This document shows positions 17,711 through 59,391 of a DNA stretch of 64,000 nucleotides, in pieces; positions within the stretch are counted from its first letter, which is position 1; the number at the start of each line of letters is the position of its first letter. The position numbers and the translations under genes were made by a program. The stretch spans positions 65,102,001 to 65,166,000 of the forward strand of contig OZ076409.1 of assembly GCA_964187785.1 (NCBI GenBank), written 5' to 3'. This DNA comes from Amphiscolops sp. MND2022 (lineage: Eukaryota). The notes under the pieces were generated by a model. That model saw only the letters and a program-made list of their open reading frames with translations, was not told the DNA's origin and ran no database searches.

Positions 17711-18764
17711 AAATGGTTGTACTAGAAGTAATATTTGAATTATTCTAGTAATCGGTTATTAACAGTGAAACAATTAATAATTCGTATCTGAGTATTATCG
17801 AAAATAGTGAACTGATAATATTGCAGTTTTCAAAATTGTGTCCCTGAGGACAGCTAGTCCTGGGTATTTATAATCAGGGCGGGGGTGATGATCTATTTTC
17901 AGGGTGTCATGCATCTATTTTTAGAACATTAAGACTAAAAATAGCACCGTGATGTCATCACCGCACTAAATATATACATCAAAGAGCTAGCGGTGGTTGA
18001 ATGTTTATGTGGCCCACAAGGCTACAATGACAATGACAACCAAGAATTACATATGTTTTCATGTAAAGCAACAATTCATGTAATTGCATTTGATCAACAA
18101 TAATTTACATGTACCAATACATTACTCCAAATATTCATGCAAAATATTAATTTCAAACATTGAATAATACAAATAGTCCATTTTCCATTAAAAGAAGTAC
18201 TTATTAAGCACGGTATTTGTATCTTTCATTCAGCACTGGAAACTGCTTTATTCTAATTTGGACTCAGAGTCCATTTGCCATAAATAAGCGGAGAATTGCC
18301 GCCAGTTGACGGCGCATAGCCGTTGAGTCCTTTTATTTAGATTACTGCGCAAGTGAATGGTGTGCTGTGATTGGCCGAGAAATTGGACGGACAGCGCGTC
18401 TAGCGAGACAGGAGAGGAAACATTTGAACTCGTTTCCTCTACCTGTACGCCTTGGTGTCCAATTTCTCAATCAATAAATATATACATGCAATACATATGT
18501 ATTGATATAATACGATCAATTTTGAAACAACTGAATGTTATTTCTGGTTTACAGTAATACAAAATTTTGTATTTAAAGCCATCACGATTATAAACAAAAT
18601 GGTAATTGAAATTAAATTACGACAACGTAGGGTTAAAGTTTTCTGCTAATGGCTGAGAGACATCCGGTCCTCTTCTCTTTAGTTTATTGGCAGGGTACCA
18701 GGGAGAGTGTCATAATTATATCCCACTGAGTACCAGTTTCCGTCACAGGCGGCAGCCTGCGACA
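17161..18764 (-). repeat. 5' LTR of element A (1604 bp), containing the first 183 gag codons
   Basis: TG...CA ends, followed by the PBS; candidate TATAAAT at ~17866-17872 (minus strand) upstream of gag ATG 17710. Confidence 0.95.
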
Positions 18765-37300: not shown

Positions 37301-40029
37301 CTTGCAAAACGCTTTGTTTCTGCGAAAATCACATGGGATACTTCAGTTGAGAACTTCAGAAAAAAAGCGCATAATGCTGAAAAAACCCTGGCGAAGGACT
37401 TTCTTTAAGTCTTTACTATAATCTGCTCTTTCCACGAAACACACGACTAAGTCACTGCAATAGCAGTGTACTTTTCTCTTTTCGATTAGCGCTGACAAAA
37501 AAAACATTTCAACTTCTCGACTTTCACCTTTGAGAACCAATGAGAATGGTGATTTTCAATTGAAAATCGACGAGTTTTCATTTTGTATATTTTAAAAAAG
37601 TGCCAACAATTCTTTGTTAGTGAATGTTCCCCGACATCACTTCTGTTTCTCATTAGGTTTTCGAGCTGTTTCGCAAGGAGCTCCTGCACCCCTAGAAAGA
37701 CATGAATTAATTCAGCCAATTGAGTTTCTCTGAAGACATTTATAGCTTCCTCACCTATTGGAAACATCAAAAAAATTTCAAAGGTTTTCTCTTTCAATTT
37801 TTTCCTTTCAGTGGCAAAAGTGTGCTTCAACCTAGCAAAACGCCGAAAAATTCATCAATATAAAGGGGTACAATTTGAACAACTGGAAGTTTTTTTGGAA
37901 AAAATCGAATAGTGCCAAAGAAATTGTATGTCTTTTTTCAAAAGTTTTGAGAAACTTAACATCCGTCTCAAAGGACAAAAAATATCGAGCCCGTTCTTAA
38001 GATTCGGAAAGCGGGTTTCCTTGCCTGAAAATTAAGAAAAAGCAAACTTACTCTCACAAATTTTCTTCGAAAGTGTTTTCGAATTGTCGCAACGTGCCAA
38101 ATAAAATAAAGTGTCCCTCCATGCTTGCAAAACGCTTTGTTTCTGCGAAAATCACATGGGATACTTCAGTTGAGAACTTCAGAAAAAAAAGCGCATAATG
38201 CTGAAAAAACCCTGACGAAGGACTTTCTTTAAGTCTTTACTATAATCTGCTCTTTCCACGAAACCACCGACTAAGTCAATGCAATAGCAGTGTTTTTTCT
38301 CTTTTCGATTAGCGGTGACAAAAAGGAGCATTTCAACTTCTCGACTTTCACCTCTGAGAACCAATGAGAATGGTGATTTTCAATGGAAAATCGACGAGTT
38401 TTTGTTTTGTAGATTAAAAACAAAGTTCCAACAACTCTTTGTTATTGAATATTCCCCGACATCATTTCTGTTTCTCATGAGTTTTTCGAGCTGCTTCGCA
38501 AAGAACTTCTGCACCCCTAGAAAGACATTAATTTATTCAGCTATTTGGGAGTTTTTCTGATGACATTTATAGCTTCCTCCCCTACCGGAAAGATCAAAAC
38601 GATTCCAAATGTTTTTTTGTCATTTTTCCTTTCAGTGGCAAACGTGTGCTTCAATCTAGCAAACCGCCGAAAACATTCATGAAATCAAAGGGCTTCCATT
38701 TGAACAAGTGGAAGATTTCCGGAAAAAAGTCGAATAGTGCCGAAGAAACAGTATGTTTTTTTCAAATTTTTTGAGAAAATTTTTATCTGTCCCACAGGAC
38801 AAAAAACATCGAGCCCGTTCTTAAGATTCGGAAAGCGGGTTTCCTTGCCTGAAAATTAAGAAAAAGCAAACCTTTTCTCACAAATTTTCTTCGAAAGTGT
38901 TTTCGAATTGTCGCAACGTGCCGAATAAAATAAAGTGTCCCTCCATGCTTGCAAAACGCTTTGTTTCTGCGAAAATCACATGGGATACTTCAGTTGAGAA
39001 CTTCAGAAAAAAAGCGCATAATGCTGAAAAAACCCTGGCGAAGGACTTTCTTTAAGTCTTTACTATAATCTGCTCTTTCCACGAAACACACGACTAAGTC
39101 ACTGCAATAGCAGTGTACTTTTCTCTTTTCGATTAGCGCTGACAAAAAAAAAACATTTCAACTTCTCGACTTTCACCTTTGAGAACCAATGAGAATGGTG
39201 ATTTTCAATTGAAAATCGACGAGTTTTCATTTTGTATATTTTACAAAAGTGCCAACAATTCTTTGTTAGTGAATGTTCCCCGACATCACTTCTGTTTCTC
39301 ATTAGGTTTTCGAGCTGTTTCGCAAGGAGCTCCTGCACCCCTAGAAAGACATGAATTAATTCAGCCAATTGAGTTTCTCTGAAGACATTTATAGCTTCCT
39401 CACCTATTGGAAACATCAAAAAAATTTCAAAGGTTTTCTCTTTCAATTTTTTCCTTTCAGTGGCAAAAGTGTGCTTCAACCTAGCAAAACGCCGAAAAAT
39501 TCATCAATATAAAGGGGTACAATTTGAACAACTGGAAATTTTTTTGGAAAAAATCGAATAGTGCCAAAGAAATTGTATGTCTTTTTTCAAAAGTTTTGAG
39601 AAACTTAACATCCGTCTCAAAGGACAAAAAATATCGAGCCCGTTCTTAAGATTCGGAAAGCGGGTTTCCTTGCCTGAAAATTAAGAAAAAGCAAACTTAC
39701 TCTCACAAATTTTCTTCGAAAGTGTTTTCGAATTGTCGCAACGTGCCAAATAAAATAAAGTGTCCCTCCATGCTTGCAAAACGCTTTGTTTCTGCGAAAA
39801 TCACATGGGATACTTCAGTTGAGAACTTCAGAAAAAAAAGCGCATAATGCTGAAAAAACCCTGACGAAGGACTTTCTTTAAGTCTTTACTATAATCTGCT
39901 CTTTCCACGAAACCACCGACTAAGTCAATGCAATAGCAGTGTTTTTTCTCTTTTCGATTAGCGGTGACAAAAAAGAGCATTTCAACTTCTCGACTTTCAC
40001 ATTTGAGTTTTTCAATTGAAAATTTACAA
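22254..40029. repeat. Tandem segmental duplication (22254-30833 and 30834-40029)
   Basis: Non-satellite sequence 22254-~23550 recurs almost exactly 8580 bp later; both blocks end at the same satellite variant CACATTTGAGTTTTTCAATTGAAAATTTACAA. Confidence 0.88.
23550..30833. repeat. ~823-bp satellite, block 1 (~9 monomers)
   Basis: Anchor TTCAGTGGCAAA recurs at ~24499, 25321, 26143, 26967, 27789, 28613, 29438, 30262. Confidence 0.95.
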
Positions 40030-40649
40030 GTTTTTATTTTGTAGATTTAAAAAAAGTTCCAAAAATTGTTATTGAATATTCCTCGACATCACTTTTGTTT
40101 CTCATGCGTTTTTCGAGCTGTTTCGCAAAGAACTCCTGCACCCCTAGAAAAACATTAATTTATTCAGCTATTTGGGAGTTTTTCTGATGACATTTATAGC
40201 TTCCTCCCCTACCAGAAACATCAAAACGATTCCAAATGTTTTTTGTCATTTTTCTCTTTTCAGTGTCAAACGTGTGCTTCAATCTAGCAAAACGCCGAAA
40301 ATTCATGAAATCAAAGGGGTACCATTTGAACAAGTGGAAGTGTTTCGGAAAAAAAGTCGAATAGTGCCGAAGAAACCGTAGGTCTTTCTCAAAATTTTGA
40401 GAAAAATATCATCGGTCCCAAAGAACAAAAAACATCGAGCCCGTTTTTAAGATTCGGGAAGCGGATTTCCTTGCCTGAAAGTCCAGAAAAAGTAAAGTTG
40501 TTTTCACAAATTATCTTCGAAAGTTTTTTCGAATTGTCGCAAAGTGTCGAATGAAACAAAGTGTCCTTCCATGCATGCAAAACGCTCTGTTTCTGCGAAA
40601 ATCATAGGTGTTACTCCAGTCGAGAACTTCAGAAACAAAAGCGCATAAT
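32128..40649. repeat. ~823-bp satellite, block 2 (~10 monomers)
   Basis: Same anchor every ~823-826 bp from ~32860 to ~40259. Confidence 0.95.
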
Positions 40650-41050
40650 TGTGATGCCATGATGCATGTCCTCAAAGATTCTATAAATCTGAAATACTCT
40701 GAACTCTTAACCAAAGCAATTAGTAAATGTAATCTAATTTAGAAGCTAAGAAACTTCATTTAATAGATCCTGTATCAAGCTCCCCTGCTTCATCCTGTTG
40801 CTGTCACATTGTTAATTGATGTAACCTACCCTAGTTAATAGAATATATCTACTCGGAGAAATTGAGAAATCATCCTAGCAATCGGTCTTCCTCCCATACT
40901 TCAAGAACTGAGATCTCAGAAATAGATTGTACTCAGAAATAGCTAGCTACAAGATATAAGACAAGACGACTCTGCTGTTAAAATCTTAGACTTCTTATGT
41001 CAGTACTAACACTTCTAAAAGAAACCACCACACAACTTTTTAACAGCTCA
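40650..41050 (+). repeat. 5' LTR of element B
   Basis: TGTGATGCC...AACAGCTCA; about 7 differences from 58129-58529. Confidence 0.95.
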
Positions 41051-41052
41051 AT

Positions 41053-41062
41053 TGGTGCGACC
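41053..41062 (+). promoter_or_regulatory. Putative PBS of element B
   Basis: TGGTGCGACC after LTR CA plus a 2-nt AT spacer; primer tRNA not identified (only the first 7 nt fit tRNA-Gly(TCC)). Confidence 0.6.
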
Positions 41063-41243
41063 AAGAAAATTCTTCTTTCTCTCCCATTCATTTCACACAT
41101 CTACAATTGTTGTACCTCCTTCCTCGACTTTCTCATACGCTATCTCTTTGTTCGACACACAATTTCTCCACCTCTCAATATCGCCTATCGTTACTAACTT
41201 CAACGTTGCAACCAATTTCTATTTAAAATTGATCTGTGTTGCT

Positions 41244-41500
41244 ATGGTTCTGACTGCGTTTCTCACCGTAATTCCTGTCAGTCATATTTCTTGGTTCTGA
41301 CTACGTTTTTTGACGTAATTCCTGTCAGTAAATTTTTCGTTCCAACCACATCTGAGTGAATTCGTGTTGGCTTTCTCTCTTTCTTCCGTTCCAACCGCAG
41401 ACGTGCGATACGTGTTGGCCCTTCTACAGTGCTATCCAGCGATTCCTGCTAGTGGAAATCTCTTTGGTTCTAGCCGCTTGGATCAACTTTAAAAGTTGGC
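41244..41500 (+). other. Array of 4 (+1 degenerate) structurally conserved RNA hairpins in the element B leader
   Basis: GTT + 5-bp outer stem (CTGAC/GTCAG x2, CCAAC/GTTGG x2) + inner stem-loop + 6-7-nt 3' bulge. Confidence 0.7.
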
Positions 41501-41734
41501 ACACCTATATAACACATATTTTCTACATAACATAATTACAATACCTTTCTTGTTCTCTCTTTTCTAATACACACAACATACAAAACTCTTTTAAAACTAG
41601 CTTACGGATCCAAATACATAACAATTAAAATATATAACACATACATCACATATTTCTTTATATAACTTTCACTTTTCATTCACCTATATAAAACAAATTT
41701 TAATGCAACCTATTGGACTTATTCTTCATGGTAC

Positions 41735-41857
41735 ATGCCGCCTTCAGTAGACACTATAGTTAAACTCATTGTCTGCTTTTGGTTCTTTGTTGCTATCATT
41801 GCCGGTCTTGCACTTTTTCTGGACAAATTCTTAATTTCATTCATACCAAAACTTTAA
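41735..41857 (+). CDS. Small ORF, 40 aa, single predicted TM helix
   Basis: MPPSVDTIVKLIVCFWFFVAIIAGLALFLDKFLISFIPKL; below the ORF-track size cutoff. Confidence 0.4.
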   Translation: MPPSVDTIVKLIVCFWFFVAIIAGLALFLDKFLISFIPKL

Positions 41858-41876
41858 AGTACAACCTTTTTCTTCT

Positions 41877-42116
41877 ATGTTAACAAGTATAGTACTACCT
41901 CTTTTTGGACTACTTAGTATCTACCACACTTTCCATACACTTATCCAATATATACAAAACCCACTCCTTCTTTTTATAAGTACTGTACTTACTATTTTCT
42001 TACAAGTTGTTTTCATAGATCAAATTTTACCATATAATTCACAATTCAATACAAAATATCTTCTTTTCCGATACATCTATCCTTTATGGCAATCTTATTG
42101 TACTAATCAAACTTAA
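41877..42116 (+). CDS. Small hydrophobic ORF, 79 aa, just upstream of gag
   Basis: Two hydrophobic stretches; packed between the 40-aa ORF and gag ATG 42126. Confidence 0.35.
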   Translation: MLTSIVLPLFGLLSIYHTFHTLIQYIQNPLLLFISTVLTIFLQVVFIDQILPYNSQFNTKYLLFRYIYPLWQSYCTNQT

Positions 42117-42125
42117 TATCAAATA

Positions 42126-45100
42126 ATGCTTCCCACTCCATTTACAGTCACTACTGACAAAAGACAAAATCGATCTCTTATACAAGATGTAACACCTTTT
42201 CTACAAAACATTATCTTTCAGTACACAGACCCACTTCCATTTGAAACAGAACCCCATATATTACATACTATTTCATTAGTACGAGAATATTGTGATTCTT
42301 ATCTATATTATATCCACTATAAAACACTTGACATTACACCATCACAAATCCCTTTTCAAGTTATTTTTAACCCTGTTAAAGGAATAAACCTTGGAACATT
42401 TTATAGAACTATACACCCACAAAATATTACACTTTCTATACAAGATGTTTTTCACACATACATGCAAAAACTCATTGAATTCAATGAAAACCAAGACACA
42501 CCACCTTATCGTCCTTCTCATTTACAAGAACTATAACACAGATCTGAATATTTTGAGGTCCCAGATCTTGACACGAAAGTCCAACGACATGATAATCCTC
42601 ATTATTGGTTACAACGAGATATCTTACAAATAAAACATTTTCAGTACAGATTCTTTAACAACATTATCCTTACAGATGACACTATACCTCAAGTCAAAAT
42701 TTTTACACAATTCTTATTAAAGTTTCTTAGATTTAACTACCAACTAATTTGGGAACAAAAAGATCAACAAGCCTATGTTAACTTCCCTCAAATATTAACA
42801 CATATAGAACTCTTACCATACATCATAAAAAATGAAAACAGACATTTACATTACCGAGATCTTACTTCATTAAAGGTTACACATTTTGAACAAATAAACT
42901 TAGATCACAACTTTGTACTTGAACATTCTGAAACATCAGATAACAGACCCTTTACTACACCTGATACTTCCCATGAAACAATTCCTGAAGAACAAACCTC
43001 TAGTGTTGAACCTTCATATACAAGACAACAATCAGAACAATCAGAACAAGAATCTCCAGAACAAGAAGCCCTTGTTAATCTTTTTCAAAATCCTGATCCT
43101 CCTCAAGAACAACCATCAGACCCACCATTATCACAAATCTCAGATATGCAACAACCAAATCCTTCTGAAACAAATACAATTCACAATACATCAGAATTTT
43201 CTGAAGGAACAGTACAAAATACACGAAGTTTTACAATAACCGATGATTCAAATCTTATAATAATTCCTACCCACAATATCACACAAAATGAATTTACAAA
43301 CCAACATCAAGACAACACTTCAAATACAAACCCAGACAATACCTCTATTTTATCTACATCTAATACTAATATTACTCAATCCTCTCAGACACAAATACTA
43401 TCTCCTCGAAATTATAATCCACCTTCTGTTCCACCTCAATTCTCATGACTCCTCTCAACAAAGCTCATCAAATACACCCTACATTGCACAAAACAATAAT
43501 ACAGTACATTTTCAAACACCAACTCCACCATCATCTTCTGAAATAAAAACTTCGAATTATACTCCAGCTCAAACCAATTCAGTACAAACTACACAAACTA
43601 CCTTAAACATTAACACCATCCATTCCAACCCATCTACAAATTATACCACTGCCAGACATCTTTCTCGACCTCCATTACAACCTATATTAACTAATCCATT
43701 ATCATACAGTCTCACGAGTACTAATCCAAGTCATACACAACAATCTCAGATAATTTACAACACACCCAACCCAATAAATACTCTTTCTTCTCAACATACA
43801 TCCAATACAATCATTCCTACATTACAAACTTCTCAATTTCAAATACCAAATCCTCCTTCAACAACAATTAGAACTAACCCTCACTTTAATAATACTTCAA
43901 CTACTTCTTTACCTAATATTTCAAATAATCCTACGTACAATACAACACCCCCATCTACTACATCTTATAACACTATGTCACACCCAACATATATTAACTC
44001 TTCTACTTCTATATCAGAACCCATTAAACCTTTTGATGGACTCGATCACAACTATACACCTGAAGAATATTTACAACATATTGAGGCACGTGTTACATTT
44101 TCCTTAGGTTTACAACCTACATCAGAACATGAATATAAATTTTGGCACGCCCGTCGCATGGCTTTCATACAATGCTCTTTAACAGGTACAGCACTCAGCT
44201 GGTACATTCGTTTAAACGACACTTATAAACATGATTGGCACGCTTTTGTACAAGCTTTCAAAAAACAATTTTCTTCACAAAAGAACGCTTACTATGCTCA
44301 AGTTGAAGCCCTTAATTTAACTAAAAAAGATAATGAAACAGTACGTCATTTTGCACTCAAAGTTCAACAGCTGGTTGAAAAAGGCTTGTGTAATGAGAAT
44401 GCATCCACAATAAACCTCAAATGTAATGAAATCTTTACAAAAGGACTTCCAAAAAATCTTAAAGACTTTGCAAATAAAAGGCAAGTAAAACACACCTCCA
44501 CTGTTCTAGAACCTTCAATTCCTTTTCATACATTAGTAAAACTTGTTGACGCTGAAGATATAGCAAACGACAAAATCAGAACACATGATCTTGCACTTGA
44601 AATTAATAATATTACAAAACAATTGAACACTCAAACTCTTGATCACTCATCTCAAGAACAACTTATGTATACACAACCCAAAGACCCAAACAACAAAAAT
44701 AAACCTGCATATAAAAAATATTGCTCATACTGTCATAGAACAAATCACTCCATTTCTGCTTGTTTCAAAAAACAACGAGATGATGAAGATAAACGAGAAG
44801 CATATGCTCGATCAAAATCTCCACAAAAATCATTCGTTCAGTACTCCCGTTCTCCTTCCAATGATAGAACAAAACACTATGATAATCGATACCGAAGTCG
44901 AAGTACCTCACGAGACAACTCTTACAACAAAAATTATTCACAAAACCGATACCGTTCAGCATCTCGAGATAGAGATAGATTTTGTTATGACAAAAGTACT
45001 ACTCCTCCACACTACTCTAGATCAAGATATGATACATACAAACGTGATTCTCGATCTTACCGTTGTCCCTACTGATCTTCTTATAGATCCCCATATCGAC

Positions 45101-45249
45101 AAAACTCTCGTCCTAGATACAGATCACGCTCCTATTCAAGAGACAACAAATTCACAAAGTACACAAATTCATATAGACCACCTTCAAAACCAAGAGACTC
45201 TAGATTTTCTAGATCTCGCTCACACTCCAATTCTAGAAATAAAGTCAAT
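42126..45249 (+). pseudogene. gag: gag region of element B (~1040 codons; TAA at 42534, frameshift ~43445, TGA at 45073)
   Basis: IKPFDGLD capsid-like motif, CSYCHRTNHSISAC knuckle, RS/Y-rich tail; the frame continues into pol after 45075. Confidence 0.85.
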
Positions 45250-48200
45250 ATGATACAACAACAAGACCAAACTGACCCTATCAAATTTGAAGTACACATG
45301 TATCACCCAACAGCAATGGCAAATGCTGTCACACCTACAAGTTGGTTTTATACACTATATGTACACACCCCATCAAGTATAGTACAAAGAGACAACCCAT
45401 CTAGATTAGAAATTGCATTCCTTCTAGATAGCGGTGCTTCCATATCTGTACTCAATTACCCAACATACATAACTCCTACAAAACTTCTAGATATTAGATC
45501 AAATCACACCTCTGATGTTGGACCAACTCGCAATTCCAAAACATTAACCATTGCAAACCAAACTGATGTTCCTATTTTACATTATGCCAATATAATTTTC
45601 AACACCACTATTGATGAAGACTCTCGTTTCTTTTCAGTACCTTTCGCCGTAGCTGACATCAAATACAACATCCTTGGCACACCATTCTTTGAAGACAATA
45701 TACAAAACAAAAACATACAAGACTTTACACTCGAATTTAAATACCAATCAAAAACACACCCAAATTATGCAAAATTTACAACACTCCTATCTAAAGATTA
45801 TCCCTACTTCTCTTACATTTATAGAATTAACTCAAAAACTCAGATACGTCTAAAACCCAAAATTTCAAAAATTGCACACTTTCCGATCAAAAATTATCAT
45901 AATCTTCATTTTACAACTACACCACGAAACCACTTCTTTCCTTCAGTACCTCATACCTATTTTGCTACCAATTTCCGTACAAATTTCAATTTCATTGAAG
46001 TATTTACAGACGACAAGCCAGATATTTGTGCAACTATTATTCAGAACACTTCAAAACATATTGCAACCCTACCTCCAGGACATATTGGATACATTGAAGT
46101 TCCAATTACTAATGAAAAACCTAAATTCTTCCAAGTTAACGACATTAATACTTTAATACATAACGTTACCCATACTTATCATCCTGATATTACTGAACCA
46201 CTTCCACAGACCAACTATATTGTACAATATGATGATCCTACAACCCCTGCTCCTCAATTTTCTCTACATCAAATTTGTATGACAAATAAAGACGTTGCAA
46301 ATCAAACTTCTCCTTTATATAACGTTCAGCCTACTTCTCATACTTCCGAAAAACGCAATTTCCCTTCTCTACCATATACTTCTGAAAATCTGAAATTTAT
46401 TAATGAATTTAACTTCCAATTTTCTGACCTTACAGATTCAGAAGACATTACTCTTTGCGATATGTTACTCAAGTATAAGACATGCTATGCAACTCATAAA
46501 AACGATGTTGGAAAAATTTCAACACCATTTCGTATACGACTTAAACCAAATGCTCAACTTATGACACAACGTCCTTCCAAAGTCCCTATCCACTACCGAG
46601 ACAAACTTAACGTACTTCTCAAAGAACTCGAAAACTATAACATTATTAAACAAATTGGTTCTTCTCCTCAAGACAAACCCGTTTATGGCACAACTTATTT
46701 AAACCCCCTTATTATAATTCCCAAGGGAGATACAATAAAATGTGTATTAGACGCTCGACATCTTAACTCCAATACAGAACAATCCGATGAATCTTGGCCT
46801 ATTGAACCTCTTGCTCCACAACTAGCACGCGCAAATAAAAAGTACAAATCGGCTATTGACCTTATGTATGCCTATGCACATACACCTCTTGACGAAGATA
46901 CTATAAAACTCACTAGTTTCTCTTCCGGAGATAAACTTTTCGCTTTTATTCGAGGCTTTTATGGTCTCAAAGGACTACCAAACTTCTTTACAAAACAAAT
47001 GTCTACTTTCTTTAAAACTCTTATAGAACAAGGTTTCGCTCTTGTCTACATTGACGATATATTACTTTTATCTGATTCAAAAGAACACATGTTCCAACTC
47101 ATAGAACAACTACACATTATTAGTACAAAAAACAATCTTAAACTAGCCCCTGAAAAATCCTTTTTCATGCTTCTTAAAGTCAAATTCCTTGGACATGAAA
47201 TTGGTTACAATACAATTAAACCAAATCATTCAAAAATTGCAGCTATTCATAAGATCCCTTCTCCAACTGGCAAAGTTGCCCTAATGAGTTTCATTGGCGC
47301 ACTCAATTTTTACACCAAATTTATTGAAAAACTACATATTAACCTCAAACCATTTTACGATCTTTTACATGAGAACACTCCTTGGAAATGGACAGACGAA
47401 CACGAAAGTCTATTCCAAAAACTTAAAATGTCTCTCACTTCTGAAACAGAATTAACAATACCAAATACAAAACATCCATTTTTCATTACAGTTGACGCTT
47501 CCCTTATTGGATTAGGCGCTGTCTTATTCCAATTAAATGAACAAAACAAAATGAAAGTCATATCATACAACTCTCGTATACTTAATCCACAAGAACAAAA
47601 ACTCTCCACACTTGATAGAGAACTTCTTGGTATAGTACACGCACTTCAAATCTATGAATTTCTCATTATAGGTTCTCCCCATCCAATACACATTTTTACT
47701 GATCACAAACCTTTATCACATTGTTTTACAAAGAAAGGTAATCTCAGTCCTCGTTTCTACAGAGCTCAAATGCAATTGACAAAATTTTCAAAACTCAAAA
47801 TAATTCACACTCCTGGAAAAAATCTCTCTGTTGCCGATATGTTGAGTCGCTCCTTCACAAAAGCTGAATTACAACTAAACCAGTTAAAACATAAACACCT
47901 CCCACCACAAATCGATTTTGCACTTTTACAAGATAACACTCTTAAACCTGTACATTACTTAATAAAACATGAAGAAATTTTACCTCATCAAAAACATGAC
48001 TCTCATCCAATTCTCGCTGATTATGGTACAGATCAATTCTCTATTCGTATCAATGATAAAGGAAATGACATTGTTGTCAAACCGTTACAATCCTTCTCAT
48101 TCAAATCCATAACTCCTTTTCAAACTAAGTTCAAGACACCTACAAAAAAGAACAACAAAACCCTCCATCAACAGTCTCTCTTACTTAATGATACTGACGT

Positions 48201-50296
48201 TACAAGTGATGACGAAGATCATATTTACACCAGAATTCCAAAATCTGACTCTTCCTTCTTACAAGACACAACATTACAAACAGAAAATTATTCTACTCTT
48301 AAACAACCAACTCACACTACCTCACAAAAATCAATTTCTGCAATAAATGTACAACCAAATTTACCATCTCTCACACACTGTCAACAAATCATACCTTTCT
48401 ATGATACATCATTTTTTAAGTACAAAAACTATTTTCAAGGTTTCTTCCTTCCAGATGATTACTCATTAGACATAAAAACTCTTCAACAACAACAATCCCA
48501 AGATCCGGTACTTAGAATTGTTTATTCTTGGTTATTAAACAATGAAAAACCCGAATTTGTAACACCTCTTATTACTGGTACTCCATTTTTACATGTATAT
48601 TACAAAAGAGTTTCACAACTTTTCATTGACGAATCCACAAATTTTATTAGTCTATATATTACAAACCCTACTGTTATAAACCAATCCTCTACTCCAAACT
48701 TTGTACAAGACACTATTCGTATATGCCTTCCTTTTCGACTGTTCAAAACTGTCTTTAACAAACTCCATGAACACTCTCATACTGGTATGAAAATTACATA
48801 CAATACATTCAAACAATATTACTACATTCCATTCCTTGAAAAATGGCTTTCCATTTTCATACATGATTGTATTGAATGTCAACGAAACAAACACTTTAAT
48901 ATGAAAATTCAAACTGCTCCTACACAATCTTTTTCAGAACATGCTCCATCTTTTAACTATCGAATTTCAATGGACACTAAAGGACCTATTAATCCTCCTT
49001 CTCGCAATAAATCCTATATACATGTAATTATTGACGCTTTTAGTCACTTTGTTGTTACAGTACCCATTAAATCAAACAACGCAAAGACTGCTATCAAAGT
49101 TCTCCTACACCATTGGATTATTAAATTTGGACCACCAATATATCTTGTCACTGATCGTGGATCAGAATACGTTAATAATGAAATGGCACACCTTTGCACA
49201 CTTATGGGAATTCGTCATTCTCCTAGAACAGCTTACTCTCCTTGGACAAATGGCCTTGTTGAAGTACAAAACAGAAATCTTGGTACCCATTTACGAATGT
49301 TCTTACATGACACACCTAAGGATTAAGCATTCCAAGTCCATATGTACGCTTATGCACATAACTCACAACCACTTTCAGAACTCAACATTTCACCTCACGA
49401 AATTGTTTTCCACACCCGACCCAGAATACCCCTTACATTTGATTTGAACCTTATCCGAGACACCTCTAAAACATGTATTTCTCCCAACTTCCAGCACACT
49501 CCCATTATGATAAATCAGATTTAAACCCATTTTTCTATAAAACACTTTAAAACCCATCCCACATTGGTTTCTCGCTGTAGAAACTGCTATGTTACAAATT
49601 TTTTCTACAGTATACGAAAACACTCTAAGAAAAATCAATTCACACGCATATATTACAAAAACTTACCATGAAGGTAAACCCCTTCCTATTGGTACTTTTA
49701 ATTTAAAACGTAATTTTACACACAATCACTTTTCTGACAAACTAAAACCCCTTCGGATTGGACCATACAAAATTCTTGACAGATTATCAGACGTCACATA
49801 TGAACTACTTGCACAAGATGGCTCTACAGTACACGTCCACAGAAATCATTTAATTCCATATTATCCAAAAGAACCACTCTTGTATCCACACCTGCGTAAA
49901 TTTATGCGCTTTTCAGACACAACTCAATTTCAAATTCCACAACCTACCAAATATGCAAACAGTGATTCTTCTCCTTTTAACTCAGACGAATCGTTGTCAG
50001 AAGAAGATTCCCAAACATTTGTAACACCATCATCATTTAGTACATCCAATCAAAATACACCATCTATAGCATCCAATGACAAGTTTTTGACTCCCTCAAC
50101 CAATGACAACTCCTTATATAGACATATAATTAATACCCCTCACACTAATGTCTCTAGTGACAGATCAAGACACTCATCTAATAACCAAACAACTTCACTT
50201 CCTTCTCTAATTGACAGAACCACAAAAACTACTTATAAACTACGACAACAACCCAAATTAGATTATAGACTTTTTATTACACCTTCAAAACTGTAA
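45250..50296 (+). pseudogene. pol: pol of element B (PR, RT, RNase H, IN); stop at 49324 and frameshifts in the integrase C-terminus
   Basis: LLDSGAS; YIDD; VDAS...RELL...TDHKPL...ADMLSR; HEHSH...CIEC; SMD...TDRGSE...GLVE; IGPY (GPY/F) motif in 49589-50296. Confidence 0.93.
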
Positions 50297-50382
50297 TCCA
50301 GTCATTCTATCCGTTGGCTCACTCAAAACTAGTCACTCCAGTTGAATGAAATATAACCCATAACAAGTTATCTCAAAGATAA

Positions 50383-51624
50383 CCTGTTGAAAACACTTCA
50401 ACAACCCTGGATCCTCCCTCTGATATATCTCCATCAGCTCCAAGTATTCCTTCCCCACCTGAATCTTCAGTATCTAGCACTACAAACTCTAGTAATGTAA
50501 CTCCTACTACTCCTTCTAAAAGATCAAGATCATACATCTCTGAAACCACCTCTTCTTCCCTTCTTCACAGACCACCTATAACTGAAATTCCTATAAACAC
50601 TCGTCCTCAACAAACTCCTATTAACACTCCTATTATACATATAATAAACCCTGAAAGTGTTGAACAATACTTAACATACAAACATCCTACAGCTATCAAA
50701 ACTGTTAGACTACAACCTCAACTTAATCTTGTACAAATCCCTGCTACTGAATATACAAAGCTACCTTCACTAAAATTACCTTCAGAACTTAGCACTACTT
50801 CTTCAAAACTTTATCCACCATTAAAACCCCTTCGAAAACCCTCTACATCACTCTCAAATCTTTTAGACAATAATACTTCAGATTACGCTCCATCACAAGA
50901 CACACGCTCCCTTTTTGTACCTAAACATAGATATAACCTTCGTGACCTCCCTTCACGTAGACTTAGTACAGACACTTCAACACTCAATTTTTCTGCTCTT
51001 TCTAGCAATTCTGCACTACGACTTGTAAGACAACACGCTCAACCATTGTCCTCTGACGCATCATCTTCAGAACTCTTTCAATCTCCTTATTTTACTTCTG
51101 GTTTTGAAACCGCTTCATTACTCTCATCTAACCCTCAGACTGCATTTTTATCAGGAGACCTTTTTTCACAAGTAGTAATCCCTACTCCCGTTCCTGCACA
51201 AATTAGACTATCCGAATACTATACTGCAGAACACTCTAGACCCCCAACTCAAAATTTTGCTGACTATCCACTTAGAGTCGATGGTATTACCATCTACGAC
51301 CCACAAAACGACCCCCGATTTCCAATTCTTGCAGAACGTTTCATTAATAACAACGACCTCTTATCTCACAAACGCAAAGAAACAGAACTAAAACGCCTTC
51401 AGACACCAAATCTAGAACTTAAATTTGAAGTCAAAGTCAAATTTCAAGGATTAAATCCACACCCAATATTTCACGTTTCTAAAATAGAACATAAAACCTC
51501 TCCTGCTCCTTTTGAAGTAGTACATATTGAATTTGAACGCGATCTTAATATACCCACTATCACATATGGCAACATTGTCTTCTGTAACCCATATTCCGGT
51601 CTTAAATATACAACATCTTTTTAA
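50383..51624 (+). CDS. ORF between pol and env, 413 stop-free codons without ATG; S/T/P-rich N-half, globular-looking C-half
   Basis: Frame of track ORF 51046-51624 read manually and found open back to 50383. Confidence 0.6.
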   Translation, partial: PVENTSTTLDPPSDISPSAPSIPSPPESSVSSTTNSSNVTPTTPSKRSRSYISETTSSSLLHRPPITEIPINTRPQQTPINTPIIHIINPESVEQYLTYKHPTAIKTVRLQPQLNLVQIPATEYTKLPSLKLPSELSTTSSKLYPPLKPLRKPSTSLSNLLDNNTSDYAPSQDTRSLFVPKHRYNLRDLPSRRLSTDTSTLNFSALSSNSALRLVRQHAQPLSSDASSSELFQSPYFTSGFETASLLSSNPQTAFLSGDLFSQVVIPTPVPAQIRLSEYYTAEHSRPPTQNFADYPLRVDGITIYDPQNDPRFPILAERFINNNDLLSHKRKETELKRLQTPNLELKFEVKVKFQGLNPHPIFHVSKIEHKTSPAPFEVVHIEFERDLNIPTITYGNIVFCNPYSGLKYTTSF

Positions 51625-54273
51625 ACCTTACACAACCTTTTACATAACAAATCTAATACTTTATTTACATTTATTTAACTCTACCTTTGCCATACCCACA
51701 ACACCCTCTGACACAGAAAACTATCTTCCATTGGATGACCCGAATATTACAAATCTCATGGTTTCTCATTATGACTGTGCAAAACAACACAATCTGAGAC
51801 AATTTAACCTACTCAATGTAAAACAATGCACTGAAGCTCCTTCCGACATTAAGCATGCAAGTGTTAAAGCCCGTGTATATGTCCGAGCAAAAGCTAAACG
51901 CATCAAAGCTTTCAAATGTGTTGCTCATGCAAAAAAGGAAAGGAAAATATGCTTTCAAGGTTCCGTAAAATACCGTCGTGTTGATAGAACCGTATGGAAT
52001 CATAATACATTACCACTCCCTGTTACTCTTGATCCAGTAGAATGTAAAAACATTATAAGACATTTAAATGGTACAAATGATAAAATACTGAACAACCTTC
52101 AATACAACAAAACTTTTACACTCTTAGAAGATCATTATTTTCAAGAACGTTTAGAACAATATCAAACCCTTTTCACTGTATATCAATTGAACAAAATGTA
52201 TACAGGTACATTTAAATTTATGCCTGCTGATAAAAACTGGATATATGACCCTACTCAAAACCCTTATCATAACTGTCCTGCTCATCACCAATTCGAAGTC
52301 AACTTAGTTAGTTGGCGACTAGAAATTTCTGAAGTAGAACTTACATATGATGACACATCTAATGACATGATAATCGATGGACATACATTACCCTGCTACT
52401 TTGCAGATGGTTTCTGTAAACCCACTACAAAAACTCCTTTTACTCTTGTTTGGTTCAATGATGATTATTGTCTAATTTTTACCTTACAAGACTTTATTGG
52501 ACGTATGACTAAAATTGAAGATAGATATTGGATTGAAACAGACTCTTTTGTACATTCTCCACATCCAATAAAATCTAAAACAGCTTCTGGTATCAAAGGT
52601 ACAGAACATCCCTATGTTTATGCTCCTCATACACAACATCCAAATAATCCAAGTCTTTCAAGATTTGAAGTTTTTCCTACAGCACAAACCTTTTGTGGTA
52701 AACCAGACCCTCTTTATTCTACACAATATTCAGACCTTTTTGTTACATACACTGATGGTTTCAATATGCATACAGGACAACCCAATCCTCATTCCATGAT
52801 TGATGATTATATTTCTGGTAAAATAGTATTGGACACTTCAAATAACAAATTTGTATTCCCTGCATTAAATGTATCAAACAATTTTGCTACCATTGATTAT
52901 GATGCACATATAAACACCAAAATCGATTATACTATTAATCATGTTTTCCGATCAATGACAGTACAAGAACTAAATACTCTTCATACAATATGTGAACTAG
53001 AACGAAACCAATTCCTTACAATACTCGCAATGTCAGTACAAAACCCTCAACTTGCTGGTTTCCTCTTAACCGGTAATAGAAGTAACTTCTTATACGTTGA
53101 AGGCTCAACCGCCTGGCTTTACGACTGTCTTCATTTTTTATCTCCTTTATACAAAGCAGATAGATGCTTTGACCGTATACCCATACATTTTAAAGATACC
53201 TTAATGTACGTTGATCCTATTACAAGACAAACTTATGATTATGCTACACCAATTACATGTGATAATAATCCACGTAACATTATTGAACTAGATCCTGATT
53301 CAGACGACCAAGACTTTTACATTCTTGGACCTGAACCTATTAAACGCAAACCTCCACTAATGTTTACACCTTCGCAAATCAAAACTACAATACGCCCTAA
53401 TACTTTTACAGCCCAAGATGCTGGTATATATTCAAATGCAGAACTTGATCAATTTTGGAACCGTATTTTATTTTCTAAACATTCTGACTCTACACTCCAA
53501 TTACTAGGCAAAGCTCTTAGTTATTCCTTCATTTCATCTAATACTCCAAAATACGATGCAGATTCCCCTCAAGACTTTGGTAATCCTTACAATACATTAC
53601 GTATAGGACTCCATGATAAATTCTTGAATTTAACTCCTCTTTTTACACCTACATGGTTTTCAGATGCTTTTATTGCACTTTTTGGATACCCTTGTTACAT
53701 TCTCACACAATGTGGTATATACTTTCCTACATTTCTTTTCGCACAAGCTACATTAACACTCATAGTCAAACTTTACAAAACAATATCTATTAAATATAAT
53801 CTCAAAAATAATATTACTTGATTTAGTTCTATGGCACATGGTTTTTTTAATGTTCTTACAGCACGAATGGTCAGTGACCTCCATGAGACTCAAAACAAAA
53901 AACCCAAAAGTACACTTTTAAAATCCAAATCTTTAGATAATTTTATTGACACTTCTCCAAATCTAATTAACCATTCTACAGATGTTACTTCCCCTCCACT
54001 TTTCTACACTAAACGTCCTAACAAATTAAATTTCCTAAATTTAAATTGTTTCCGAAACTACACCACAATTCTCACCATAAAACAGCTCCACTTCCTTTCT
54101 CTCCTGTTCAACATCCTCCACTTCCTAATTATACTCAAAAAAACTTTCACTCGAATGACAATCTAACTACTCAACATGACACTTTAATTAACAATCCTGT
54201 CACTTCTACTACGGATACACCAAATAAAATCTATTCGCGGATAAACTATCCTTTCCCTCCTCCATCTTCTTGA
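51566..54273 (+). CDS. env: env: class III (herpesvirus gB / chuvirus G-like) fusion glycoprotein; premature TGA at 53819 and a frameshift in the tail
   Basis: Signal-like N-terminus; Cys pattern YDC..., LPC...GFC...TLVW, FCG...LYST, ICELERNQ...NPQLAGFLL, CFDRIPI...VDPITR...C; N-glycosylation sequons; C-terminal hydrophobic anchor. Confidence 0.8.
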
Positions 54274-54536
54274 ACTTTCTCTCAGTTTTTCTGTAACTCT
54301 CTTTCAGTACACTTGCCTACGATCTCTTCACAATTGCTACTCCTCCACCGCTCAAAACTCTTGCAGAAGTTCATCTTCCTCAGCCCAACAATACTTCTCT
54401 AATAATAACCGTCTTCAAAAACTCTTCAACTAAAGTTGATAAATCCACTCGTTAGTGTAATTTATAGTACTTTCACTTTAAAGTGCTAAGGCCTCTTGGA
54501 ATAGATAACACTGTGATTGTTGATGTTTTTAAAACA

Positions 54537-55656
54537 ATGACACAAGCACAAATTGACCTACGAACACAGCTTGAACAAGCAACCCCAACAGATCTTATAA
54601 CTAGACCTCTTTCAAATGATTCTCCTGTTCTCTATATCGAAACTTCAGAACAAACACCTCCAACTTTTCTTGAACCAATGGAACACACAAAAGTTGGAAA
54701 CGAAAATTCAAAACCTACTCCTCCACAAGATGATACTGATCATACACAATCGACACCACCTCCTCCAAAAAAACGATATGCAATAATGAAAGATCCAATC
54801 TTTCTTTCATCACCAATATATCCTCCTTCAATACCTTCAAAAATTTCACTTTGCACGAATCGCGACGATCATTTGATCTCAATTCTTTCTACTGACGATT
54901 TCGTCTTCAAAGCACAGCTAACTTCTCTATATATGCATCCTACTGACTACTCATTTCGATTATATGACAAAAATCAAGACTTCTTCACATCCATTGCTTC
55001 CAAAATAATGGGTCTATACCAATATTGGCTCGAAAATGGAGTTAAAATTTTCTCTCTCCAATTCAATTTTCTTCGACCTTCAATATACGATCTCAAAACA
55101 GATGAATCTGATCCATCTTTTCTCTCTATAGCACAAAAGCTACTCATCATCAAACATATACTAAACTCCTGCAATACACGAAACCACAAAATCACATTTT
55201 TGTCAATTACAAATATACATCACCGTTCACAATGACAAATATGTACACTCTGGACCACTCCTGTATAACAGGCTACCTTCGAAACTATGACCCTATAAAA
55301 CAATACTTCTGTTTGCTTCCATACAACAATACTTCACCCCCACTTATTGTACCTCAAGAATATCTCATACATTACGATGATTTTTGTTGCCTTGCAACAT
55401 TCCTACTCAAATTGTCAAACCTCTTACTGTTATTAAACACCTAGTATCTTCTCCACTTGACGATAAAGATAGAACATACTATACAGCACTCTACAAGCAA
55501 ACGTATTCCTACAACGAACTTCTCTTTATCTCTGCCAAAACTATCTCTTTCATGGTACAAGCTGAACAAAAAACTGAACATAAATCACACGCTTCACCTA
55601 TAAAAAACGCTCCTGACAAATTTTCCTCTGTATTAAACAACCGAACACCGACATAA
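54537..55656 (+). pseudogene. Post-env accessory ORF, apparently broken by frameshifts
   Basis: Overlapping ORFs 54483-55235, 55232-55444 and 55384-55656 tile continuously; PPPKKR NLS-like motif. Confidence 0.5.
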
Positions 55657-56276
55657 CAAATTTACTTGAACCCTATAAACGAAACTCCTCTGAAACACCT
55701 ATCACAACACTCACACATATACTACACTGCTACGACAGAACACACAAACTCCTTCAGACACTCGATTTAGACTCCCAACGCATCACTCAATCATCCCAAG
55801 CAATCCAATCTGCTTTGGAAACTATAACTACTCTTTTTAACTCAACTAATCTTCATTAAACTCTTCTACAGGTAATATAAAGTTCTTAATTTTTCTTCTT
55901 TGGTACACTTTATGATACATCTGTGGCATATTTTAAAAGGTATTTTCATTTTTACCTACTTATTTAAAGTAAATTCTTGCTTTTGAATGAAATCTCAGGA
56001 CTATTTTTCAAGTACACTATTTTTTCCTACAGTACATGTCAAAAAGCTAACTATTTCTATCAAAAAACTACAATACAAGACATACAAGACAATATAACAC
56101 AACACTACATATGATACATTATAGCACCCAATTTTGTTGTACATCTTTGCCCTGATATTGTCATTCTTCTTACACTTCCTTTGTTTTAGAAACATCCATT
56201 CTTCTTCCTCCTCCTTCCATTCTCTTTCAGAACATCTCCACTTCTCCTTTTTCGTCCTCTACAGGACTCTCTCGTC

Positions 56277-56729
56277 ATGGCCCCCAACGCTGAAATACAA
56301 GATATAATAACAATGACTTCCAGCCACTCAAAAGTTCATAGCCTAAAAGCAGCTATTTTTCACACAATGGCCTACAAACTTTCCCTGGAGATCAACAACA
56401 ATAAAATAACGCCAAAATCTCTTATCGCCTTTCTGAAAGTCTTATATAATGTCGCCCAAATCAAAAAGGAACACATTACATTTGAACAATATTCAAGGAT
56501 TCATGTCGCCGGACCAAAAATTGCCATTTGTGAAACGGCTTCTAACGTCGTTTTTGTGTTAAACTCGGCGTTCACGTCTAAAGACCAATATTTTCAAGCT
56601 GCCCTACACGAAGCCACAAACGCATTTAACGAGATGCTTCATAGTTTTGGATATACCCAGAAACTAGAACACTATGACCCTCATCAACATCAGGCACATC
56701 CACCTCAACAACATCCTCTCTACAACTAA
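56277..56729 (+). CDS. Accessory ORF, 150 aa, unknown function
   Basis: GTCATGG start preceded by a long pyrimidine tract and CTACAG acceptor at 56264; protein-like composition. Confidence 0.6.
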   Translation: MAPNAEIQDIITMTSSHSKVHSLKAAIFHTMAYKLSLEINNNKITPKSLIAFLKVLYNVAQIKKEHITFEQYSRIHVAGPKIAICETASNVVFVLNSAFTSKDQYFQAALHEATNAFNEMLHSFGYTQKLEHYDPHQHQAHPPQQHPLYN

Positions 56730-58128
56730 AACAATGTTCTACTTACTTTTATCACTCTTCAACTCCAACTCTTCTTGAATCCATCATTCTTTTTCAATGA
56801 TGTTTGAGATGTAGCTGTCGATCACTCCTTCAAAGAACTCCTACACATGCTGAAACTCTTCACTTCACCCATCCACGATGGTCAACAACATCCATCTCCA
56901 ATTTGGGTTCATCGACGTTGCCAAACTTTGTCCTCGTCACTGGTCTTCACACTCCACGATGACTTCTTAACTGGTCTTCCCACCTCAAATGCTGACTTCT
57001 TGACTGGTTTTCAAACTCTAATGGACTGTACTCCACTCCAAATTTCAAACATTATAATCAAAACTTGACTCAATTTTCAAACTGAACTGTATAATCAATT
57101 TTAACCAATATACCTTGTACCTTATTTTAATCAAATTATAACTTTAACATAGTATAGTGCTATATACCCTTATCTAATCTTTAATGCTATATACTCTTAT
57201 CTAATCTTAATCTTCTGTAATCGCATTATGATTACCCCATTATAGTAAAATCCCTTCAAAATTCTACCGATAATTATCTTTGTAACCACAATATTATCTG
57301 CTCCTATTGTCTTGTGTATAGTACATTGACTTAATCTTATCTCATTATGTTGTTACATCTATAATACACTTCAAAAATATATCTCCAATACCCATCTTTT
57401 ACAGAACACAAGTCCTACTTACAGTACAAGAAATTTTCTAAGATTTTTGGACAAAAATTTTACTTTTACAAAACATGTTCTACATTTTTGTTTTAATCCC
57501 CAAAAGCATTCCCAAAAATTTTCCAAATTTTTCATTAGAACTCTTGAAAAATGTCACTTCTAGTTTTCCAATGTTTGAAACTTGAAATAGCCAAAGTTTT
57601 ATTTCAACTTTTGCTTCTGCTCTACTCTTTACTTTTGTTGAAAATGAACTCTCACTAGAACCTTGACTTTTCGAAACTTCTTCACTTTTGGTTCACATAC
57701 CCGCTAATGTTGGTTCACAACTCATTGACAACTTCACGCTTTAATTCTTCAACTTGGAAAGTTTTCAATGCTGATTAACTCATGTTGATGCAAGAATTTT
57801 TTCAAACAAGCCGATGGCTGATACAAAAAAAGAAACATGAAATGATAAATAGTTGTCAACAATAACTTCAAAGAGCTTGTCAGTCGAAGAAACTGAAAGA
57901 ACTTGAACCTTGCTTGAACCTTTTTGCACCAATTGAATCGTCTATGACGTAAGAAGTCAAATCGTCTTACGTTGTTCTCACTCCTTAAGTATGGTACTCT
58001 ACAAAACGAAACTCATGCAACTCTAGTACAACACATATGAAACAAACCCATGCATATAACAAAAACTTCTAGAACTCCTCAAACCCAAAGTGCATATAAG
58101 TAATTTTATTTTTAAATTCCCGGTTGAT

Positions 58129-58529
58129 TGTGATGCCATGATGCATGTCCTCAAAGATTCTATAAATCTGAAATACTCTGAACTCTTAACCAAAGCAATT
58201 AGTAAATGTAATCTAATTTAGAAGCTAAGAAACTTCATTTAATAGATCCTGTATCAAGCTCCCCTGCTTCATCCTGTTGCTGTCACATTGTTAATTGATG
58301 TAACCTACCCTAGTTAATAGAATATATCTACTCGGAGAAATTGAGAATTCATCCAAACAATCGGTCTTCCTTCCATACTTCAAGAACTGAGATCTCAGAA
58401 ATAGATTGTACTCAGAACTAGCTAGCTACAAGATATAGGATAAGACGACTCTGCTGTTAAAATCTTAGACTTCTTATGTCAGTACTAACACTTCTAAAAG
58501 AAACCACCACACAACTTTTTAACAGCTCA
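58129..58529 (+). repeat. 3' LTR of element B
   Basis: Copy of 40650-41050, followed by the TSD TAAT. Confidence 0.95.
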
Positions 58530-59391
58530 TAATGCTGAAAAAAACCCTGAAGAAGGACTTTTTTTTAGACTTTACTATCATCTGCTCTTTTTACGAAAGC
58601 GCTGACGAAGTCACTGCAATAGCAGTGTACTTTTCTCTTTTCGATAAGCGCTGACGAAAAAGAGCTATTCAAGTTCTCGACTTTCACTTTTGAGAACCAA
58701 TGAGAATGGTAACTTTCAATTGAAAATCAATGAGTTTTCATTTTGTAGATTTGGAAAAGTGCCAAAAATTCCTTGTTCTTGAATGTTCCCCGACATCACT
58801 TCTGTTTCTCATGAGGTTTTCGATCTGTTTCGCAAAGAGCTCCTGCACCCCTAGAAAGACATAAATCAAATTCAGCCAATTGAGAGTTTTTCTGATGACA
58901 TATATAGCTCCCTCCCCTACTGGAAACATCAAAAAATCCAAAGGATTTTCCTTCAATGTTTTCCTCTCAGTGGCAAAGGTGTGCTTTAAGCTAGCAAAAC
59001 GCCGAAAACATTCATGAAATCAAAGGGCTACTGTTTGAACAAGTGGATGTTTTTTCGGAAAAAAAGTCGAATAGTGCCGACGAAACCGTAGGTCTTTTTC
59101 GAAATTTTTGAGAAAATTATCATCCTATCATCCGTCCCAAAGGACAAAAACATCGAGCCCGTTCTCAAGATTCGGAAAGCGGGTCTCCTTACCTGAAACT
59201 CCAAAAAAAAGCTAAATTGGTTTCACAAATTTTCTTGGAAAGTTTTTTCAAAATGTCGCAAAGTGCCGATTGAAATAAAGTGTCCCTCCGTGCATGCAAA
59301 ACGCTTTGTATCTGCGGAAATCACAGGGGTTACTCCAGTTGAGAACTTCGGAAAAAACGCATAATGCTGAAAAAACCCTGAAGAAGGACTC
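58530..59391. repeat. Remainder of the satellite (~1 monomer, more diverged)
   Basis: Resumes at TAATGCTGAAAAAA, exactly where block 2 was interrupted. Confidence 0.9.

Follow-up and report, generated by a model that had tools for sequence, protein, structure and literature searches.

How far can a Ty3/Gypsy-type retrotransposon take on the organisation of a complex retrovirus, and how might it leave the cell? These questions are raised by a 17.9-kb element at 40650–58529 of a 64,000-nucleotide stretch of the Amphiscolops sp. MND2022 genome (GenBank assembly GCA_964187785.1, contig OZ076409.1, positions 65,102,001 to 65,166,000, forward strand); we call this whole stretch the window and give coordinates as window positions unless a locus is named. 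An initial annotation had read from the letters a primer-binding site (PBS), two small membrane open reading frames (ORFs; here u1 and u2), gag-pol, an ORF X, env, two or more accessory ORFs (here Y and Z) and a 1.4-kb 3′ untranslated region (UTR; 1399 nt) between long terminal repeats (LTRs). All are present, and the identity and layout of the element are practically certain. Our best explanation overall, which we hold to be likely on the sequence evidence, is that this is one decayed member of an abundant family of Ty3/Gypsy-type LTR elements, in which seven reading frames, a class III fusion gene among them, are kept under selection and which likely spreads as an enveloped particle. Two open questions are touched by it: whether env-bearing Gypsy elements outside insects are infectious, and how retrotransposons gain cell exit.

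Copies and sister families

The family of the window copy (S1) has a very high copy number. Searching the genome with env DNA gave 41 matches of 96–98% identity (best 40 of 3948 candidates), and the LTR gave 2771 candidates (best 40 scored). We fetched 39 S1 regions, 29 of which have both LTRs and span 17.5–18.4 kb; with the window copy they make up a 30-copy set. The other 10, with one LTR missing or rearranged, were left out of the alignment. A frame map, made by counting stop codons per alignment column over the 30 copies, gives shared frames of 40 (u1), 79 (u2), 2732 (gag-pol, a single frame), 902 (env), 442 (Y) and 150 (Z) amino acids, and a 413-codon frame X without any shared ATG. No copy has an unbroken gag-pol (0/30), while X is open in 17, env in 8, Y in 13 and Z in 17. 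The window copy has stops at 42534, 45073, 49324 and 53819 that none of the other 29 copies share, and deletions shift the frame of its gag-pol, env and Y; only u1, u2, X and Z are still open in it. The very long gag-pol that had been claimed therefore holds for the consensus frame of the family and not for the window copy.

The element lies within an 824-bp satellite, other units of which give the uninterrupted empty site. Its LTR pair differs by 7 substitutions in 400 aligned bases and has TG...CA termini (TG...TA in family S4, below). The LTRs and 4-bp target-site duplication (TSD) described initially were confirmed, and 25 of the 29 other full-length S1 copies have a perfect 4-bp TSD, a 5-bp TSD being found in 0/29. 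The satellite array itself, about 20 units at 23580–40649 and 58530–59400, is split by the element. Throughout 40650–58529, unlike in the flanks, C strongly outnumbers G on the strand read (skew −0.25 to −0.70).

Three further families of the same genome, S2, S3 and S4, were found via lower-identity env clusters (about 50 scored env matches each, 90–100% identical); their whole-protein Env identities to S1 are 77, 59 and 53%. Nine of 12 fetched regions (four per family) are clean LTR-bounded elements, 17.7–18.8 kb long with LTR pairs 98.9–100% identical. All keep the gene order of S1, from the small ORFs through gag-pol, X, env and Y to a last ORF, which is Z in S2 but an unrelated frame in S3 and S4. 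Every frame is open in two of four S2 copies, and stops are absent from 48 of the 50 top-scoring env matches of S2. Because of these near-identical LTR pairs and stop-free env matches the lineage is, to judge by sequence, recently active. Tandem LTR arrays and head-to-tail elements with a common LTR also occur (L049-L050, L095-L097 and L107-L109).

Selection on the reading frames

A lack of conservation of the extra ORFs had been named beforehand as refuting, and X, Y and Z proved to be conserved. Variants common to at least three S1 copies fall on codon positions 1/2/3 as 11/0/41 in X, 3/3/41 in Y, 28/12/100 in Z, 97/65/372 in gag-pol and 20/6/78 in env (register corrected), whereas non-coding sequence gives 28/41/41 (3′ UTR) and 13/19/16 (leader). 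Singleton variants are flat over codon positions. Between S1 and S2 the ratio of nonsynonymous to synonymous substitution rates (dN/dS) is 0.15 for X, 0.12 for Y, 0.07 for env and 0.03 for the reverse transcriptase–RNase H (RT-RH) region, with synonymous sites between families near saturation. X, Y, Z and env are under purifying selection.

One could suppose that the extra ORFs stay open by chance, the sequence being C/A-rich, or that they are junk picked up by the element. This notion could draw on the strong strand skew, on low complexity and on the searches of Pfam, the atlas and PDB, which gave no significant match for X, Y and Z. Set against it are the third-position bias, dN/dS values well below 1, and the homology of X and Y across the four families (37–69% and 35–71% identity, respectively). 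We give this notion hardly any credence: these sequence comparisons refute it for X, Y and Z, and it remains for u2 only, which is 41% identical between S1 and S2 (dN/dS 0.17) with a weak selection signal within S1.

Placement of Pol

Pol is of Ty3/Gypsy type (metavirus-like). The gag part consists of a novel 270-aa N-terminal domain (no significant Pfam or PDB profile match), a P/T/Q linker, capsid, a zinc knuckle and an R/S-rich tract; then follow protease, RT, a single RNase H, a bridge of about 300 aa, integrase and SH3. Pfam recognises the Gypsy-type RT, one RNase H (PF17917/PF17919), the integrase and SH3, and the order protease–RT–RNase H–integrase, with LTRs, PBS and 4-bp TSD, is that of Ty3/Gypsy elements, whose TSDs measure 4–6 bp. 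The atypical RT motifs first noticed, LDARHLN, KKYKSAIDL and RGFYGL, are present in a 1416-aa frame of the window, and the single RNase H abutting RT as in Gypsy was borne out: it retains all four acidic residues (D-E-D-D). Pfam finds no second RNase H, and the bridge matches the RNase H profile with a probability below 1% (row P0349 was mis-cut). Against solved structures, RT-RH scores 194 bits with Ty3, 134 with the next, 114 with foamy virus and 64–66 with gammaretrovirus; the order Ty3, caulimovirus-type, foamy, gammaretrovirus is given identically by a control Gypsy element.

Among 1.84 billion representatives, seven proteins have the same odd DAR.LN and GFYGL motifs, and these seven cluster with S1–S4; RT matches in the atlas search were generic only. 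In metagenome contigs, 100 matches to the pattern came down to 12 loci, and five metagenome loci join the same RT clade. In quick unrooted trees with unnamed rows, this clade of 16 rows has Shimodaira–Hasegawa-like approximate likelihood ratio support of 99–100 and sits on a long branch apart from other Gypsy-like rows.

That long branch could be taken to place the element outside Metaviridae, among lokiretroviruses, Odin or foamy viruses. Post-env accessory ORFs and a long R/S-rich Gag tract also resemble foamy viruses. The loki env derives from Mononegavirales (PMC9040795). Retroviruses, loki and Odin are defined there by a tether plus a new RNase H. Since a dual RNase H defines those groups and a single one was found here, with Ty3 ranking first among PDB structures, the element lies outside Retroviridae, loki and Odin, and we regard membership as very improbable. 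The comparison with foamy, loki and Odin elements that had been called for thus came out negative, on the single catalytic RNase H and on the class III env described next.

Env and its relatives outside the host

Env has a signal peptide, an ectodomain, 16 cysteines, a transmembrane (TM) segment and a tail of about 170 aa. It matches profile PF24664 (E 1e-23 to 1e-27); in fold searches the glycoproteins of xinmo-, qin- and chuviruses come first (E 7e-11), with herpes gB and GP64 found in PDB. A sequence search of PDB with the Env profile found nothing. As far as profiles and model go, Env belongs to the class III fusogens, which PMC13524379 calls the ‘HSV/gB type’, with the features of gB-type errantiviruses: a separate env ORF, signal peptide, class III ectodomain (low-confidence model) and TM segment. 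What tells against this assignment is the model itself, which is poor (mean predicted local distance difference test (pLDDT) score 41, best at residues 50–280; TM-scores 0.1–0.2).

No env relative was found among the viral contigs searched. The three metagenome loci that extend past pol (L137, L139 and L140) all have the same env, with E values of 1e-58 to 1e-103 and 26–31% identity for the two complete ones. L137, a 13.2-kb contig, has gag, pol, env and then two paralogous ORFs; L139 and L140 have pol, a 234-aa ORF and env, to which L140 adds a 391-codon ORF. Extra ORFs are present in all three and thus are a trait of the clade, though neither X nor Y proved detectably homologous to those of these loci. 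The post-env ORFs L137:9651-12092 and L140:9158-10330 have in common a beta-rich segment of 75 aa, which is only weakly similar between them (probability 1.8%).

ORF X: probable start codon and late-domain motifs

X consists of a disordered part and a conserved 130-aa C-terminal domain, and its 3′ end overlaps the env start. Met is absent from X in all four families, and homology puts its start at CTG GAT with A at −3. The context A-N-N-CTG-G is found in 28/28 ungapped S1, 4/4 S2, 3/4 S3 and 3/3 S4 copies (among those listed), although CTG makes up <2% of Leu codons in gag-pol. Internal Met per residue is 0.0004 in 119 X homologues versus 0.015 in Y and env, and the X region has the lowest observed/expected AUG ratio among 1.1-kb windows in all four families. 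A strong-context CUG before an AUG-poor stretch is the signature of a non-AUG start with leaky scanning (PMC3542737, in part), as in ORF I–III of rice tungro bacilliform virus; that case concerns an AUU start on a caulimovirid pregenomic RNA, whereas here a CUG would lie on a predicted subgenomic env message. Because the rare CTG is invariant with −3A/+4G, X is without Met and the region is AUG-poor, X is probably initiated at CUG.

Several points weigh against this. With the protein held fixed, out-of-frame AUGs in X are only modestly depleted (8 seen versus 18.6 expected); P is 0.04–0.61 for single families, S4 shows no depletion, and the four families are non-independent. Met is also missing from other S/T/P-rich tracts (0 in 185 in the S4 Gag linker). 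One to three AUGs are left between CUG and env, one in good context (S4); frames from such AUGs run for 1–17 codons, or 36 in the window copy. Lastly, generic matrices place acceptor-like sites shortly before env in S1–S3, and env may have its own message because of them.

X could also be real and owe its translation to recoding, or to an AUG in an exon spliced on from upstream, with env on its own message as in Oikopleura Tor, whose env mRNAs arise by splicing or an internal promoter (PMC4402516, in part). Besides the sites near env, acceptor-like sites occur 190–211 nt upstream of the CUG in S1 and S4, and one genomic copy joins the u2 start to X. That join is a microhomology deletion without GT-AG ends, and the scan of the four families gave no strong or conserved leader donor and no conserved acceptor at the X start. 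X also starts at least 86 nt past the gag-pol stop and behind a stop codon of its own, which excludes frameshifting or readthrough from pol, and splicing leaves the invariant rare CTG with −3A/+4G unexplained. We therefore consider this route improbable and initiation at CUG the better reading.

The copy with the join (L150:246-4230) is internally deleted and lacks gag-pol, u2 being fused in frame to X at the microhomology. We rejected it as a reverse-transcribed spliced RNA; it is possibly a non-autonomous X-env carrier.

The X proteins carry motifs that in enveloped viruses bind TSG101 (PSAP) and ALIX (LYPxL), as PPxY binds NEDD4 (PMC5217368, in part). [LI]YPxL occurs in X of 4/4 families (expected 0.02–0.03 each) and in 61/74 homologues, PSAP in X of three of four families, and PPxY in Env tails of 5/5 families and 47/52 homologues. 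Neither PSAP nor LYPxL was present in any of six Gag regions examined. In metagenome Env tails, LYPxL occurs in L137 and L140 and PSAP in L137. Counting against a budding role, PSAP is kept in just 14/46 long X homologues and is absent from X of S4, PPxY occurs also in Gag of S2 and S3, and the motif counts are not independent because the families have common ancestry. On balance we lean towards a late-domain (budding) role of the motifs, and we infer that Env bears the budding signals throughout the clade and that X bears them in this host.

Y, Z and splice-site predictions

Splice sites were scanned with generic weight matrices and are predictions only. Two sites stand out: a donor behind the Y stop, with ranks of 2–5 in each of the four families, and an acceptor ahead of Z, with ranks of 1–4 in S1, S3 and S4 and 27 in S2. 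The predicted Y model has a pLDDT of 43, too low for use. Z (56277–56729) shows the densest shared variation within S1. In two S2 copies that are otherwise 99% identical (L091 and L100), Z is 76% identical in amino acids with synonymous sites saturated; judging from these patterns, Z alleles seem to be swapped by recombination.

Proposed cycle

We propose the following model. Genomic RNA would yield u1/u2 and then one Gag-Pol polyprotein, via leaky scanning or stop-restart. A subgenomic RNA starting after pol, made by splicing or from an internal promoter, would give X from its weak CUG, with most ribosomes scanning on or reinitiating at the env AUG. X, with its TSG101- and ALIX-type motifs, and the Env tail, with its NEDD4-type motif, would recruit the endosomal sorting complexes required for transport (ESCRT) for release; X would act like a matrix or budding adaptor that supplies signals missing from Gag. 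Env would let the particle fuse with a cell nearby, and the germ line would thus be reached. Y and Z would come from further subgenomic RNAs, Z as an exchangeable cassette probably facing host defence.

Cell-to-cell infectivity is the part that we favour only slightly. The element might instead move only within cells, with env and the extra ORFs serving capsid transfer between cells, RNA export or anti-silencing and the motifs serving trafficking. Its very high copy number is that of intracellular retrotransposons, and in Drosophila MDG1 small membrane ORFs before gag mediate env-independent transfer (PMC11952523, in part). The sORF1/sORF2 of MDG1/412 are likewise two short ORFs before gag, one with a TM segment. 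MDG1 elements lack env, though, and the myristoylation motif and basic patch of sORF2 are absent from u1/u2, as checked against the published features, and u1/u2 do not fit the pattern of sORF2/FAST-like fusogens (a TM segment with myristoylation motif, an amphipathic ectodomain and a polybasic tail). The Env described here retains signal peptide, 16 cysteines, TM segment and a dN/dS of 0.07. We rate purely intracellular movement as unlikely, if less so than the splicing route to X, and retain the enveloped-particle model.

Comparison with known elements

In the full-text literature searched (subscription papers and Repbase being outside its scope) we found no description of this layout. Closest are the gB-type ‘ancient errantiviruses’ of Chary & Hayashi (PMC13524379), which have the same Ty3/Gypsy Pol, gag-pol-env order and class III env, as well as a tRNA PBS, multiple copies in invertebrate genomes and a small domain after RNase H. 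The undescribed metavirus lineage of the initial annotation stands in that the core is Gypsy-type and no matching layout was found in that literature; it does not stand for gB-type env Gypsy elements as a class, which that paper describes. Unlike those elements, ours have seven ORFs in 18 kb, a 1.3–1.7-kb pol-env gap with X, and post-env ORFs. The main screen of that paper took pol-env gaps of ≤1 kb, some groups being extended by hand; its available part does not mention extra ORFs, has no Xenacoelomorpha among its groups and has this PBS in 0 of 1512 table rows. The lineage is best filed with the gB-type errantiviruses as a variant, set apart by the described layout.

Oikopleura Tor3b/Tor4b have no ORF described in the pol-env gap or after env in the available part of PMC4402516, and Oikopleura elements in the PMC13524379 table have F-type env in 5/5 rows, against class III here. 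Planarian Burro (PMC6431247, in part) is likewise very large, high-copy and Gypsy-like, with env homology and extra coding capacity, but its env and host-like domains lie inside one 4900-aa polyprotein, whereas here the ORFs are separate and without host-like domains. Foamy-like fish endogenous retroviruses (ERVs) and complex retroviruses are similar in size (up to 17 kb) and have accessory ORFs (same source); here there is no tether plus second RNase H, Env is class III and Gag-Pol is one frame. Lokiretroviruses are also LTR elements, and their env comes from a negative-strand RNA virus (PMC9040795, in part); loki and Odin have a dual RNase H, absent here, and Odin lacks the env present here. 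Troyka (PMC12440569, in part) has CG...CG termini and a 3-bp TSD, as opposed to TG...CA/TA and 4 bp. Its organisation makes the element analogous to a complex ERV, without membership of Retroviridae, loki or Odin.

Such complexity is known from complex vertebrate retroviruses, and we did not find it described for Gypsy-type elements. A wider reading, tentative and rather doubtful when all its parts are taken jointly, is that this is an undescribed, widespread invertebrate lineage of reverse-transcribing viruses that came to be organised like complex retroviruses without sharing in the history of Retroviridae. It would combine a Gypsy core, a fusogen captured from a xinmo/chu-like RNA virus and exchangeable accessory genes, and its budding signals would have shifted from Gag to Env and to a matrix-like protein dedicated to them and initiated at CUG; it would be recently active, of very high copy number and deep enough for its own genus or family. 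Whether or not that reading holds, the lineage shows that accessory-gene complexity has evolved outside Retroviridae too. It also offers a candidate solution to cell exit: the late-domain motifs are found not on Gag but on Env, both in distant relatives and in this host, where a separate non-AUG protein has them as well. Screens for compact gag-pol-env or for AUG-started ORFs overlook such elements. Since a single genome contains four such families, all young and of high copy number, what is predicted of expression and budding can be put to a direct test.

Leader, primer sites and feature table

Coordinates are collected in Table 1. The PBS is complementary to a 3′ end common to host tRNA-Met(CAT), tRNA-Leu(TAA) and tRNA-Val(TAC) genes, which gives three candidate primers, and its first 10 nt are identical in S1–S4. 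The last 8 nt of these tRNA genes (L125, L129 and L135) are identical; host tRNA-Leu genes are arranged as a 270-bp tandem array. The host cox1 has AGA/AGG for Ser and AAA for Lys at conserved positions, which is invertebrate mitochondrial code 5 and rules out vertebrates, tunicates, cnidarians, flatworms and echinoderms. The ‘structured leader’ of the initial annotation was not upheld, since shuffled sequences of 41225–41500 fold equally well (z 0.19, no excess stability); it has short tandem repeats instead. A u1-like membrane peptide lies upstream of gag in all four families, and in every family the stop of the last small ORF is ≤12 nt away from the gag ATG, the two codons sharing bases in S4 (TAATG). 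A polypurine tract, otherwise a Ty3/Gypsy feature, does not precede the 3′ LTR (purine fraction of the last 15 nt 0.47–0.73); all four families have in its place an A-run followed by CCGG, which forms a non-canonical region for plus-strand priming.

Table 1. Features of the window element and its insertion site
Feature	Position	Strand	Remark
Left TSD, TAAT	40646..40649	+	other satellite units are the empty site
5′ LTR, 401 bp	40650..41050	+	
PBS, TGGTGCGACCA	41053..41063	+	complementary to host tRNA 3′ end
Leader, short tandem repeats	41225..41500	+	folding no better than shuffles
u1, 40-aa single-pass membrane peptide	41735..41857	+	intact in 23/30 copies
u2, 79-aa hydrophobic ORF	41877..42116	+	stop 9 nt before gag ATG
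gag-pol, one 2732-aa frame in family	42126..50296	+	broken in window copy
ORF X, 405 aa from conserved A-N-N-CTG-G	50407..51624	+	intact in window copy
PSAP motif of ORF X	50431–50442	+	
env, 902 aa in family	51566..54273	+	broken in window copy by a stop and a frameshift; motif also damaged
ORF Y, 442 aa in family	54537..55859	+	frameshifted in window copy; no homologue known
Predicted intron, Y stop to Z start	55872..56264	+	donor rank 3, acceptor rank 1 of 527
ORF Z, 150 aa	56277..56729	+	common to S1 and S2; unrelated ORFs in S3, S4
3′ UTR, 1399 nt	56730..58128	+	ends in A-run-CCGG
3′ LTR, 401 bp	58129..58529	+	
Right TSD, TAAT	58530..58533	+	

Other features of the window

A second, unrelated Gypsy-type element lies at 10831–17755 on the minus strand, with a 577-aa gag and pol in two frames; its ORF list contains no env, and it forms a long branch in RT trees. 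ORFs at 6449–10599 (plus strand) resemble a zinc-finger DNA transposon, the finger being presumably of BED type. They are flanked by inverted repeats at about 1.6–2.0 kb and 19.0–19.2 kb, which may bound a larger element.

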